Source: a virus
Taxonomy: Duplodnaviria > Caudoviricetes
Strand: one strand, 5' to 3'
IMG/VR virus record: IMGVR_UViG_3300032321_002024
Location: 32,001 to 96,000 of that record
DNA length: 64,000 bases
This document shows, piece by piece, positions 1,819 through 42,191 of this stretch. Both the position numbers and the translations under genes were made by a program. The notes beneath the pieces are model-generated. The model did not search any database. It saw only the letters and a list, made by a program, of their open reading frames with translations, and was not told where the DNA came from. Each line of letters begins with the position of its first letter. Position 1 is the first letter of the stretch.

Positions 1819-2085
1819 TTACTTTTTTAAAAAAATTCTAAGTATTTTTTTTATTCTTCTATAATTTTTTGGTGGTGTATAAATGGAAGAATCAACATCT
1901 CTTATATAAACACCTGGGCTTATATACTTATTACCCATTTTTCCTATGTTATTTTGTTGTGTTTCATTATCTATATGAGCATTGGCATACTGAGACATCC
2001 AGTCAGCTTTTGATCCAGTCATACCCATAGAGCCTAAAATATTAGACCACTTTTTCATTATATCTTTCTTACTTGGTTGTTTCAT
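1819..2085 (-). CDS. Chimeric mini-protein: capsid-N-terminus-like + tail-sheath-N-terminus-like segments + RxxKI tag
   Basis: KKWSNILGSMG...WMSQYANAH, then YISPGVYIRDVD (sheath SPGVY motif), then RRIKKILRIF. Confidence 0.55.
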   Translation of the reverse strand: MKQPSKKDIMKKWSNILGSMGMTGSKADWMSQYANAHIDNETQQNNIGKMGNKYISPGVYIRDVDSSIYTPPKNYRRIKKILRIFLKK

Positions 2086-2131
2086 AAAACAAAAAAACTT
2101 TTCTTGTTATAGAAAAGTTTTTATTTATTGT

Positions 2132-2910: not shown

Positions 2911-3639
2911 TTATACTACTGATATATTGATTTGTTTTGATTCTATGAACTTTTTAACTTCTATTGGTTCATTCTCTTCACCTTTGTAGAATTTAGATAA
3001 TGGTAATATTTTATCAGAGTCTAATGTGTCTACTATTATATCATTATATAAATGTCTTCCAAATTCTAACCATATTTTGTGTTCATAATTTGTTTTGTGT
3101 GTTTTGTGGTATATAATTTCATCTTTTATGTGATATACATTTAGTCTATTTTTTAAGGCACAAATAGGAATCCAGTAATCCCACCAAGGCATTCCAATTA
3201 CATATTTTTCATTTTTAAATAAAGAGGCATATTTTGAGTTAAATATAAAAATATCATATCCGTATATAAACGGATATTTTTCACCATTGTCTAACTCATA
3301 TCTAGTTCCTATAAAAATTCCGTTTATTAGATATCTATTTTTAATATTTATATCTAATTCATCGGTCAAAATTATATCGGAGTTTATTATTGCTGATACT
3401 CCATTTGATACTTTTTCAATGGAATCTAATATAGAGTTTAATTTTATTAGTTTTTTATTTTTGTATAAATATGTATCATCAGTTTCTATAAAATTTACAT
3501 TTTTATAGATATCTTTTATTCTTTCAATCTCTTCTTTTCTATTTACTGAATAGACTTTATATTTTTTAGTCCAAGAAGATATAGCATTTAATTGAGTGTT
3601 ACTGAGATCATTTGGATTTATTGTAGTAAATATCTCCAT
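2911..3639 (-). CDS. Putative glycosyltransferase-like protein
   Basis: INSDII, GYDIF, GMPWWDYW; similar to the C-terminal domain of 5756..7396. Confidence 0.6.
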   Translation of the reverse strand: MEIFTTINPNDLSNTQLNAISSWTKKYKVYSVNRKEEIERIKDIYKNVNFIETDDTYLYKNKKLIKLNSILDSIEKVSNGVSAIINSDIILTDELDINIKNRYLINGIFIGTRYELDNGEKYPFIYGYDIFIFNSKYASLFKNEKYVIGMPWWDYWIPICALKNRLNVYHIKDEIIYHKTHKTNYEHKIWLEFGRHLYNDIIVDTLDSDKILPLSKFYKGEENEPIEVKKFIESKQINISVV

Positions 3640-3641
3640 AA

Positions 3642-3854
3642 TTATTTTAACTTTTTTAAGTCGTTATCTATAGGTAATTGTAAATCAAAGTCATGATTTT
3701 TTGACACAATACTTCCTTCTTTACAGGTTGCAGAATTGCAACAATTATAAAAGTTACAATATGACCATTCAACTTCTTGTTTTTCTGTTAAGTATATAAA
3801 TATTGATTCATCTAAATGTTGTCCGCTTCTTTGAAATGATGATATTATATCCAT
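3642..3854 (-). pseudogene. Short sulfotransferase-like N-terminal fragment
   Basis: SFQRSGQH resembles the PAPS-binding 5'-PSB loop, KNHDF downstream; only 70 aa. Confidence 0.4.
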
Positions 3855-4543
3855 TTTTCTATTTCATTTTTAATTTCATCTGTTAATCCACCGTATGACC
3901 AATATTGTTTACCTATTGGTGGCTCATAAGAGTAACTATCTGTATTTGTGAGTTTATAATTATCTGGTTCATTATAAAATAACCAAGCACCAATTGCGTT
4001 AAATTCTGAAAATTTCTTACTAAACTTATTCATTATAGTATCTTCGATATCATATTCTTCATTGATTTTTTCAATTGTACTTCTATGATAAATTAAAGGC
4101 AATCTTCGCATAAATTCATAATCTAATTCTCTTCCTATAAATTTCTCAGTAACTTCTTTCCAACAAATGGCATCCCCTACTTTTGAGTAATCTGTATATA
4201 ATATTTCAGGTTTATCATCATCTATTAAATTTTGTAAATCTATTTCTTTATTAAAAATTAAATCAGAATCTGAATATAATATAAATTTCGATTTACAATA
4301 TTTATGAGCAGTCATTTTTATAAACTGTTGATATATGTAACCATTACCATATTCATTTACAAAATAAACTTCACAATTTAGTTCGTTTATTAAGTCATAA
4401 TTTAATAATTCTTTTTCTTTTTCGGGTATAATTATTATTATTTTATTATAACCAGTTAGATACTTTTTTATTGATTTTAATGAGTAATATAACCACTCAA
4501 AATCTTTTGCATATGATTTGTAAAATATGTCTATCATGCCCAA
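3845..4543 (-). CDS. Putative glycosyltransferase (GT-A-like)
   Basis: YSDSDLIF DxD motif, GYIYQQFIK, FSEFNAIG. Confidence 0.65.
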   Translation of the reverse strand: MGMIDIFYKSYAKDFEWLYYSLKSIKKYLTGYNKIIIIIPEKEKELLNYDLINELNCEVYFVNEYGNGYIYQQFIKMTAHKYCKSKFILYSDSDLIFNKEIDLQNLIDDDKPEILYTDYSKVGDAICWKEVTEKFIGRELDYEFMRRLPLIYHRSTIEKINEEYDIEDTIMNKFSKKFSEFNAIGAWLFYNEPDNYKLTNTDSYSYEPPIGKQYWSYGGLTDEIKNEIEKWI

Positions 4544-5121
4544 AAGTTTATTTTTACACCAAGTTCTTCTATTTTTCTAATAAGTTCCATTTTTGATTCA
4601 TGTGTTTCTTTTGGCATATATCTATCGTGGAACTCTACATATATTTCTGATAGTTTATTTATCGAACCATCATTTAGAATATGTCTAAGTACATCAAACT
4701 CAGCTCCTTCGATATCCATTTTGCATATAATTTGAGTATCTGGTAAACTTTTTATAAATTCACCAAAATCGATACAATCAACTTCTATTTTGTTTTCGGA
4801 TCTTTCATCCATATATTCATTTCCTATATTATCAATAGATGAGCACCAACCATCAATATCAGAAACACCGTCATTTGGTGACCCACTTTTTGTTTTTTTA
4901 TGATTTTCCTGATTAAATATTACTTTACCGTTTTTAATCCATACGGCTTTGTTATGAGCTTCTATTTCAAATGGTATACTTTTAACTCTCTCAAGTATGT
5001 TACATTCTGGATTTGCTTCAAATGTGTAAATTTTGAAATTATCATCAATAATTCCATTACTTATGAACTCATTTAATCCTTCACATAGGTGAGTTCCGCA
5101 ATCAATAAATATTTTTTTCAT
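4534..5121 (-). CDS. FkbM-family SAM methyltransferase
   Basis: FIDCGTH, FEANP, KMDIEGAEF, VEFH. Confidence 0.9.
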   Translation of the reverse strand: MKKIFIDCGTHLCEGLNEFISNGIIDDNFKIYTFEANPECNILERVKSIPFEIEAHNKAVWIKNGKVIFNQENHKKTKSGSPNDGVSDIDGWCSSIDNIGNEYMDERSENKIEVDCIDFGEFIKSLPDTQIICKMDIEGAEFDVLRHILNDGSINKLSEIYVEFHDRYMPKETHESKMELIRKIEELGVKINFWA

Positions 5122-5744
5122 TATAATTCTAATTTTTTTTGTGGTAAACCAGCGTGAGTGACGTCCATTTCAACATCTTTGTTAAAAGAATTTCTATTTT
5201 CAGCTCTACCTTCGTGATTTGGATGGAATACACATTTTAAGTCGGTAAAATTCCAACTATTTTCCCAGTGATAAGAATTACCAAATGACAATAAACCTTG
5301 ATCGTCAGTGATTCCAAATCTACTGAGATTTTTTGGCATTTTTTCTAACCATTCTTCCCAAAATAATTTATTTCCTATAAAAATACTAACACCATATGGT
5401 GATGTAATCTCTGAATTTTCAATAAAATTTGGATAGTTTAATTCATCAAAACAGTATCTATGTGAAGTTGCCCATGCTGGCTCTTTTTTACTTTTAATAA
5501 ATTCAAAAACTTTAAGAATTGGTTCGGTTAGTATTATATCCGAATCCATATGTGCTCCTACATCATGTTTTATCAGTTCTTCAACTAATTCATGACAGTA
5601 AATATGACCAACTCTGGCTAAACTTGTCCATTTTAATCCTAATAAAGCCCAACTATCTTGAGCCCATTTTTGATTATCTAAATGTTGTTTTGTGCAAGGA
5701 AATCCGCTTTCCTCAAATCTAACTGCGCTAACTAAATTATACAT
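5121..5744 (-). CDS. Putative glycosyltransferase-like protein
   Basis: MDSDIIL DxD motif, FHPNH, cluster context. Confidence 0.5.
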   Translation of the reverse strand: MYNLVSAVRFEESGFPCTKQHLDNQKWAQDSWALLGLKWTSLARVGHIYCHELVEELIKHDVGAHMDSDIILTEPILKVFEFIKSKKEPAWATSHRYCFDELNYPNFIENSEITSPYGVSIFIGNKLFWEEWLEKMPKNLSRFGITDDQGLLSFGNSYHWENSWNFTDLKCVFHPNHEGRAENRNSFNKDVEMDVTHAGLPQKKLEL

Positions 5745-5755
5745 AATTTTATTAA

Positions 5756-7396
5756 TTATTTTATATATTCACCGTAAGTTTTTTCAAAGTATTTCTTACC
5801 GGTAAATTTATTATTTGATTTCTCAATCATCCAATCATATGCGATTTTTGTATTTGATATATTAGATTTTTCTAATAATGATCTATTCCAAAATGATTCG
5901 TGTGTTTCATGATATGAAATATTTGGTGTCTCACAAACTCTACCTTGATCCTCAAATTTTTTTCTAAATGTTATATCTCCTTCTAAACTAACACCCATAG
6001 TTATTCTAAAAATCCAATCCCAAGTTGGTCTACCAATTGTTTGATTGTCTGGTAGATAATCTCTCCATTCTAACCACCATCTTTTAGTCACTGCGAAAAT
6101 ATCAGCTCCTTCAGGATTTCGACTTCCATTTGAAAATAATGATTTAGATACTTCTGATGGTGTTTTAATTTCTTCTAATTTACCAAAGTCTTTTCTAAAT
6201 GAAAAAGTACATTGATATCTTTTACAAGATTCTAATATCTTATTATAAGCATCCTCAGTTATACATATATCCGAGTTTGTATAAAGAATTATATCATCAT
6301 CACTTTTACAAAATTTATATCCCCATTCAAATATATCTTTTATTTTTGGTAATTCGTCATTATCATCATATACCATAGCAGGAATAACGTTTCCTGATTC
6401 ATAAAAACTCAACCATGTTTTTTGAGCAAACTCATTTCTTCTAATTGAATCATCATCTTTTGCTCTATAAATAGACGAAACATGAATTATAAAAACATCT
6501 TTTGATTTTTCATCAAAATTTAAATCAAAATTTAAATTATTACTTTCGTGTTTAATGTTATTCAATAGGTCAATTAGATTTTTCTCTTTGTATATAACTA
6601 TTTTCTTTATATTATTTAATATTTCAGTGAATAAATTATCAGTAATAAAATTTTCTGATGTTCTTCCATTCCAATTTTTTTTAACATCTCCTAAGTGAAT
6701 TATATCAACACTTATAGTTTGTTTTTTTGGAAAATAACTACTGAATTTCAAATCAGGATGACTTGAGTTTTCTAGTTCACTTGGATACCATTTTGATTCC
6801 ATTGTATTATTAAAGTTAAAAAGTTGAAAAAATCCATATCCGTTGTCTCTTTCATATTTTGGTAAATTATTTACCGGTGTTTCGCCTTTTTTCCATTTTT
6901 CATATTGAAAATGGTTATAACAGATCCATCTATCTGATGTGTATAATGTATCGGATTCTAAATTAGTTAGTTCAATTTTATTTGTCACAATTATATCAGC
7001 ATCTAATATTAATATAAATTCAGGGTTAGTAAGTGACTCGATGCCAACATTTATCGCCTTTCCTTTATTGAATTTAAAACCATCTTCATAAAAAACATCA
7101 GTTGTTATACATTTTACTCCATAACTTTTACAAATATTTTGACATATGATATCATCATTTGATGTAACTACTGTGATGTTCTCAAAATATTTTGTATTAT
7201 TTTCTAATGATAATATCAAAAAGTCATTATAGTTAACAGATGTTATTATAACATCTATTTTCTTTTTATCAATTGTTTGATTTATTGTCGCGTTTATAAT
7301 AGATTGTGTGGATCTTTTAATAACTTTAGGTTCAGGGGCCTTTGGTCTCCATTTTTCTTTGTTTTTGTGACCAAAGATAGTATTTGCCTTATTCAT
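5756..7396 (-). CDS. Two-domain glycosyltransferase
   Basis: N domain FNKGKAIN...LDADII (GT2-like); C domain NSDIC...GRPTWDW...HETH. Confidence 0.75.
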   Translation of the reverse strand: MNKANTIFGHKNKEKWRPKAPEPKVIKRSTQSIINATINQTIDKKKIDVIITSVNYNDFLILSLENNTKYFENITVVTSNDDIICQNICKSYGVKCITTDVFYEDGFKFNKGKAINVGIESLTNPEFILILDADIIVTNKIELTNLESDTLYTSDRWICYNHFQYEKWKKGETPVNNLPKYERDNGYGFFQLFNFNNTMESKWYPSELENSSHPDLKFSSYFPKKQTISVDIIHLGDVKKNWNGRTSENFITDNLFTEILNNIKKIVIYKEKNLIDLLNNIKHESNNLNFDLNFDEKSKDVFIIHVSSIYRAKDDDSIRRNEFAQKTWLSFYESGNVIPAMVYDDNDELPKIKDIFEWGYKFCKSDDDIILYTNSDICITEDAYNKILESCKRYQCTFSFRKDFGKLEEIKTPSEVSKSLFSNGSRNPEGADIFAVTKRWWLEWRDYLPDNQTIGRPTWDWIFRITMGVSLEGDITFRKKFEDQGRVCETPNISYHETHESFWNRSLLEKSNISNTKIAYDWMIEKSNNKFTGKKYFEKTYGEYIK

Positions 7397-40991: not shown

Positions 40992-41014
40992 CTCATTTTA
41001 TACTAAAACTAATA

Positions 41015-41218
41015 GTGAAAAAGTATAAAGTTAAGAGTCTTGTAGTTGATAGTATCAACAATGTATCTTCATATGGTGTAGATATAGAATCCGAACTTAC
41101 TAAAATTTTATCTGAACAAATAGCAAAAGAAATGGATAGAGATATTCTAAGATATTTAGGTGTTGAGCCTGATAGAAATAAACGTAGAATTAATTCCATA
41201 AATAAAATATTCATATGA
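41015..41218 (+). CDS. Mini-protein resembling gp23 major capsid central helix + tag
   Basis: YGVDIESELTKILSEQIAKEMDRDILRYL; ends RRINSINKIF. Confidence 0.6.
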   Translation: MKKYKVKSLVVDSINNVSSYGVDIESELTKILSEQIAKEMDRDILRYLGVEPDRNKRRINSINKIFI

Positions 41219-41785: not shown

Positions 41786-41956
41786 ATGTTTGTCAATCCT
41801 AATAAATTAAATTCTTATCGTAAAGTTTTACGTGGTATTGAAGATAATAATAATGATATTCAAGCAACCTGGACTTTACTTAGATCTATGATAAGAAAAC
41901 AAAAAATCGAAAGAATATATGGAACAAAAAATACAGATAGGAAAGAAAAGTTCTGA
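41786..41956 (+). CDS. Small tagged protein (56 aa, not in ORF track)
   Basis: MFVNPNKLNSYRKVLRGIEDNNNDIQATWTLLRSMIRKQKIERIYG... Confidence 0.55.
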   Translation: MFVNPNKLNSYRKVLRGIEDNNNDIQATWTLLRSMIRKQKIERIYGTKNTDRKEKF

Positions 41957-42191
41957 CTTAGAACCAGGTTATGTTTATGTTCCTTATATCCCAATGACAA
42001 CATCACAAGTTATAGTTGATTATGGTTCTAAAAATATAAGTAGAAAAAGAAAGATTAATAAAATATTTGATTTAGGTTTAGATGTTAAAGATGAATTCTC
42101 ACCAAGTAAATCAATTATGAGTAGATACTCTAAAAAGATAGTGAATAGTAAATATTACGGAACTATAGAAATAAAAAAACCCACTTATTAA
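41919..42191 (+). CDS. Mini-protein resembling gp23 major capsid C-terminus with inserted tag
   Basis: IGKK...EPGYVYVPYIPM...[SRKRKINKIF]...FSPSKSIMSRYSKKIVNSKYYGTI. Confidence 0.65.
   Translation: MEQKIQIGKKSSDLEPGYVYVPYIPMTTSQVIVDYGSKNISRKRKINKIFDLGLDVKDEFSPSKSIMSRYSKKIVNSKYYGTIEIKKPTY

Follow-up and report, generated by a model that had tools for sequence, protein, structure and literature searches.

An 88-aa fused reading frame in a giant freshwater phage as a probable deletion allele of a two-gene cassette related to capsid and sheath N-termini

The fused reading frame and its genomic context

The window analysed here, a stretch of 64,000 nt, is part of a virus record of 262,603 nt (29.8% G+C, completeness estimated at 84%) that represents a giant freshwater phage. 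Flanked by a glycosyltransferase gene on one side and by a gene for a 138-aa protein on the other, an open reading frame (ORF) of 88 codons is found near one end of this window. The same site in relatives is occupied by two overlapping genes, here called A (108–166 aa) and B (39–69 aa), which occur in nine distinct alleles. The features of the locus are the following.

1819..2085, minus strand: 88-aa fused ORF (ATG at 2085, stop at 1819; the same protein is called in other assemblies)
1957..2085, minus strand: codons 1–43, probable remnant of gene A, a capsid-derived mini-gene (DNA alignment to the A alleles of L044 and L075)
1963..2070, minus strand: residues 6–41, match to the capsid N-terminus and predicted helix pair (alignments, shuffles)
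1939..1956, minus strand: codons 44–49, probable deletion junction, A-rich, with the breakpoint resolved only to ~10–20 nt
1819..1938, minus strand: codons 50–88, complete gene B (39 aa) with its own ATG at 1938–1936
1870..1929, minus strand: residues 53–72, motif of the sheath N-terminal arm (alignment, shuffles)
1831..1857, minus strand: residues 77–85, tag, predicted helix (R77, K80, I84 and F85 invariant in 19 B proteins)
2093..2122, minus strand: hairpin just upstream of the start, a 12-bp perfect A/U-rich stem followed by a U run (z = -4.1, alignment)

An identical 88-aa protein is encoded on four contigs from ENA, JGI and Logan assemblies, and an artefact of the assembly of this record is thus unlikely; in two of these contigs, identity to this genome is 100% along 6267 and 3303 nt. 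To judge from these sequences, the 88-aa allele, seen in one strain, is that of a single strain sampled repeatedly. A tape-measure match of the protein was discarded as weak (E 0.25), and neither the PADLOC defence-system profiles nor a search of the ESM Atlas gave a usable match. Promoter-like sites at the locus occur at chance level only. The hairpin is retained in relatives, with changes in the loop, according to the alignment, and may have a terminator-like or a translational role. Gene leaders in this genome are A-rich and devoid of Shine-Dalgarno motifs, which we take to suggest a Bacteroidota host. For the same reason, and given its presence in only 5 of 258 genes, an AGGA before Met50 was rejected as a Shine-Dalgarno sequence.

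Upstream of the 252-aa glycosyltransferase, a glycosylation block (window 2911–7396, minus strand) forms a variable island adjoining the cassette, its gene content differing among the close relatives L001, L003 and L015. A gene for the ribosomal protein bS21 was recognized by DNA match in the record (G000 144543–144734, plus strand) and by Pfam match in L013 (4868–5056); such a gene is also present in Bacteroidetes phages, in a gene context differing from the one here (PMC9723584). The record itself is classed as a provirus and lacks the full-length capsid gene, which is present in relatives. Since a contig of 321,742 nt carries the same protein and close relatives reach 436–476 kb, the completeness of the record is probably overestimated. 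Near-complete relatives span 249–483 kb; in GenBank, uncultured phages of 635 and 642 kb match best.

Two halves and a shared tag

A sequence-only reading of this DNA had proposed that the protein joins the N-termini of a capsid protein and a tail sheath protein to a short tag. All three stretches quoted there are present in the ORF, and the derivation of the halves, as well as the sharing of the tag, is supported by alignments, shuffles and the enrichment of the tag in the genome. As for the first half, codons 1–43 match positions 1–46 of a profile of gene A (E 7e-22), and residues 6–41 align with residues 8–43 of the capsid protein of a relative, confirmed as a member of the Gp23 family, with an identity of 41.7% (pairwise E 2e-9) and a score of 90 compared with a maximum of 50 in 2000 shuffles. 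The nearest near-complete relative has a capsid protein that is 40% identical to residues 6–57 (E 7e-11). The earlier reading proposed profile searches with the halves as a check: no capsid or sheath profile from Pfam or PHROG matches the 88-aa protein; the family profile of gene A has T4 gp23 as its best PDB match (residues 1–55 and 92–121, E 0.003). T4 removes the first 65 residues of gp23 by cleavage at maturation, and a contact between the N-terminal region and the scaffolding core is probable (PMC9546572).

Gene A is usually 142–172 aa long and comprises capsid residues ~5–43 and 87–128, with the tag placed inside a loop; some alleles have a second tag after the N-terminal helices. A second copy of gene A was not found in the 263 kb of this incomplete record. 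The record does hold three other short, tagged ORFs with Gp23 matches (window 40993–41212 and 41919–42191, plus strand; G000 134247–134447, minus strand), corresponding to profile positions 165–194, 303–335 and 126–171, and the relatives G003 and G004 have three and six short Gp23 matches, respectively. In three contigs (L019:2840–3004, L056:1840–2004 and L062:1840–2004), a 54-aa gene consisting of a capsid fragment and the tag lies directly upstream of gene A and overlaps its start.

The second half corresponds to gene B, in which a sheath N-terminal arm is followed by the tag. Comparison with the phage's own sheath, also suggested by the earlier reading, agrees with this assignment: residues 53–72 align with residues 7–26 of a 1336-aa protein identified as the sheath by PHROG (40%, pairwise E 8e-5), the score is reached by none of 2000 shuffles, and this sheath is the best-scoring other gene in the genome. 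The match is short, with residues 48–75 searched alone giving no profile match and PDB matches of the arm to sheath N-termini being weak (E 0.56). The assignment is strengthened by longer relatives of B, which align with sheath residues 6–63 around a 13-residue insertion that is the tag. In these long alleles (L064:667–888, L075:1521–1730 and L013:628–810), which extend into sheath residues 24–63, the tag is inserted after sheath residue 23, a design shared with gene A, where the parent sequence is interrupted in a capsid loop. Their C-terminal extension was also considered as a terminase motif; this was rejected, the alignment showing it to be a continuation of the sheath. L093:1–801 and L094:1–801 have a free-standing B-like gene of 53 aa that lies apart from A and adjoins two other small ORFs ending in tag-like helices.

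Despite these affinities, the 88-aa protein belongs neither with the capsid proteins nor with the sheath proteins. Residues 6–41 are homologous to the cleaved N-terminal region of T4-type gp23 (PF07068, phrog_138), but the protein retains only ~36 of 560–590 residues and has neither the HK97 fold nor a Pfam Gp23 match. Similarly, it shares with contractile tail sheaths (phrog_34521, phrog_23; PF04984) the handshake arm Y-x-x-P-G-V-Y-x-x-(D/E)-x-D, which in solved sheaths builds a sheet between subunits (PMC10457771), but these 20 residues cannot build a lattice, and profile searches found the sheath core and C-terminal domains to be absent. The motif in the arm of the clade's own sheath differs from that in the arm of gene B.

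The tag, with the pattern R-x-x-K-I-x-x-I, stands at the end of the 88-aa protein. Of the 293 genes of the genome, 14 have it close to the C-terminus, the shuffle mean being 0.67 and the maximum 4 (500 shuffles). The protein thus fits the description of a piece of a core protein followed by this tag. Its earlier interpretation as a third member of a fragment-plus-tag system stands as far as the fragments and the tag are concerned; the true members appear to be A and B, with the chimera being a derived allele.

The cassette in relatives and the origin of the fusion

The alleles at this site in relatives combine an A gene with capsid-derived motifs and an internal tag with a B gene bearing the sheath arm and the tag, in sizes (aa) of 159+39, 108+39, 147+42, 152+39, 156+39, 155+39, 166+39, 166+69 and 165+40. 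An overlap of a few bases between the two genes makes translational coupling probable; inspection by eye for a programmed frameshift placed B in the +1 frame and revealed no canonical slippery heptamer. The pair is also present at a second site, upstream of a gene of the T5orf172 family, and gene A is often found in relatives without an adjacent gene B. All 100 clusters of homologues of 155–172 aa have the capsid arm and the internal tag. The sheath motif is found in none of these 100 longer clusters, none of which covers more than 53% of the 88-aa query, and homologue searches in general return relatives matching one half or the other, with none fully spanning both. The notion that the fusion is a conserved unit was accordingly not upheld, lack of conservation being one of the refuting conditions named by the earlier reading: relatives have two separate genes at the site, and the 88-aa form looks like a strain-level in-frame deletion.

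Comparison of the DNA points to how this form arose. The flanks of two-gene relatives are up to 97–99% identical to this genome, the closest relative of this type (L044) having 97–98% identity in both. At this locus, the present genome is shorter by 346 nt compared with L044 and by 325 nt compared with L003, and the distance from the start of A to the start of B is 147 nt here, 493 nt in L044 and 472 nt in L003. Both 325 and 346 are a multiple of three plus one, which shifts the A frame into the B frame. Codons 50–88 are identical to free-standing B alleles at 114–115 of 120 nt, and the junction is similar to the leader of B as well as to the stretch of A that codes for its first tag, while carrying substitutions relative to both parents.

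Taken together, these comparisons make it very probable that the 88-aa ORF is an in-frame deletion allele of the two-gene cassette. The loss of 325–346 nt would have removed the last three quarters of A together with its stop codon and thereby placed A codons 1–43 in frame with B. Gene B would survive unchanged, its product forming the C-terminal half of the fusion and perhaps being made separately as well from its own Met50, while most of the function of gene A would be lost. Such a deletion would be tolerated rather than newly invented, because the proteins seem to consist of short motifs in a row, each independent of the others, instead of folded domains. AlphaFold indeed predicts separate helices (pTM 0.25 for A and 0.30 for the fusion), and lacking a compact predicted fold, the remaining motifs need not be broken by an in-frame deletion; a Foldseek search with the A model, which is of low confidence, returned nothing at E <= 0.001.

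The site appears deletion-prone, as witnessed by the 108-aa allele of A and by a 42-aa fusion in L066 (2001–2129), in which an independent deletion joins A codons 1–19 to the tag of B and a second small deletion removes the stop codon of B. A third independent fusion, of 231 aa, comes from the T5orf172 site (P0045) and consists of almost the whole of A followed by a long B; this read-through product is known from the protein alone and could be a sequencing error. A natural 56-aa gene consists of the capsid arm and the tag only, and two other truncated A alleles diverge near the first tag of A, beside the break of the 88-aa form.

Possible roles of the cassette

Allele comparisons indicate that genes A and B are under purifying selection. 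Between the 88-aa allele and close B alleles, dN/dS is 0.05–0.19, with six synonymous and two non-synonymous (conservative) differences among the latter (binomial p 0.003); it is 0.2–0.64 for A alleles and 0.3–0.8 for distant B alleles. All sampled copies of the 88-aa allele are identical, so these values concern the sequence of the parent genes and include no divergence after the fusion; as the differences may predate the deletion, it is the parents, not the fusion, that are shown to be functional. Among 70 A and 19 B proteins, the residues of the motifs do not vary.

Our favoured, albeit tentative, suggestion is that A and B present motifs of virion proteins as decoys to a host surveillance protein without triggering it, with the tag as a shared docking or inhibitory helix; we rank this role above those discussed below and above any unlisted one. 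The fragments are ~40% identical to the structural proteins of the clade, and the sheath itself is 91% conserved, which suggests an old divergence from the phage's own structural genes and counts in favour of decoys. The B arm scores 14–17 bits on two unrelated sheaths versus 3–7 bits on those of the clade (four sheaths only). Furthermore, intact gene A includes the segment aligning with T4 gp23 92–121, which we take to be the Gol region. Gol is a short gp23 peptide that triggers the Lit protease in defence (PMC3014915), and the likeness ends with the 88-aa fusion, from which the Gol-equivalent segment has been deleted. A precedent for mimicry of a trigger is DSAD1 of phage SPbeta (PMC10973363), a small protein that imitates a structural-protein trigger in the pocket of the sensor, as we propose for A and B. 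By analogy, the 88-aa protein may work like DSAD1, although it does not belong to the same family: DSAD1 is folded, has a known target and is without a structural homologue (PMC10973363), whereas A and B are homologous tagged fragments that look like unfolded strings of motifs. Against decoys stands the finding that the capsid-sensing STAND sensors Avs7, 8 and 10 make their contacts at the A-domain interface, not with the variable extensions; the sheath figures in the same study only as a possible further sensor target, not yet found (10.64898/2026.01.04.697583).

The explanation that we consider best as a whole, with a probability of about 0.72, combines a deletion allele, an intact B, the loss of most of A and a decoy role of A and B, the last component being on its own the least secure. 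A rather unlikely alternative, compatible with the deletion origin since it concerns the function of A and B, is that the arms act as a poison or regulator of assembly by competing for sites on the scaffold and the sheath lattice, in particles of co-infecting phages or in the phage's own. In line with it, both pieces serve as assembly contacts in solved systems, that of gp23 probably to the scaffolding core (PMC9546572) and that of the sheath within the handshake sheet (PMC10457771), and the cleavage and probable scaffold binding in T4 of the region matching residues 6–41 would fit such interference equally well. The greater resemblance of the B arm to foreign sheaths also speaks for it, but the A arm is closest to the capsid protein of its own clade (46–55 bits versus 37, 22 and <=2) and would therefore poison the phage itself.

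Somewhat less probable still is that the fusion is a selected module presenting capsid and sheath arms on one tag. The cassette would then belong to a stock of virion and replication motifs that these huge phages recombine on a shared docking helix, with fusions creating multi-motif decoys against sensors of both capsid and sheath, a proposal that we regard as equally doubtful and that, if true, implies an undescribed host sensor for the sheath arm. That A has been joined to the frame of B three times independently (88, 42 and 231 aa) could mean that the fused form is favoured, and would then count against a merely tolerated deletion; the 56-aa gene suggests that residues 1–43 might function on their own, and the break adjoins the first tag of A, where the two other truncated alleles diverge. 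Each fusion is, however, a single allele, compared with at least 100 clusters of intact A, and the three do not converge on one product, the 42-aa form being without the sheath arm and half of the capsid arm. In addition, an in-frame join arises by chance in one case out of three, the B frame is open upstream, and some truncated A alleles lack B.

It is improbable that A and B are non-functional remnants carrying mobile tag-coding sequence, with the fusion being a further step of decay. Deletions and truncations are frequent, B is missing beside A in many relatives, and dN/dS between distant alleles is as high as 0.3–0.8, all as expected of relics; yet no pair reaches a dN/dS of 1, close B alleles do not exceed 0.19, the motif residues are invariant as stated above, A is kept in phages of 249 to 642 kb, and the pair occupies two different genomic sites. 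An assembly artefact of this contig, finally, hardly merits consideration, given the presence of the allele on four contigs, two of them identical over 3.3–6.3 kb, and the junction substitutions.

As an ordinary strain-level deletion, the fusion is by itself of little weight. More important is the cassette, two selected and probably coupled mini-genes that copy the N-termini of capsid and sheath and recur across 100 or more sequence clusters and in phages as large as 642 kb; the literature searched, with most subscription papers outside the search, contained no description of the cassette, of capsid-fragment decoys or of the tag. What this analysis adds is the sheath-derived member, its pairing with A in a cassette and an account of how the fusion arose. 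Should the proteins be decoys, A and B would represent ready-made baits for host sensors, including one for the sheath, and the natural deletion series of 108, 88, 56 and 42 aa maps the motifs that can be dropped.
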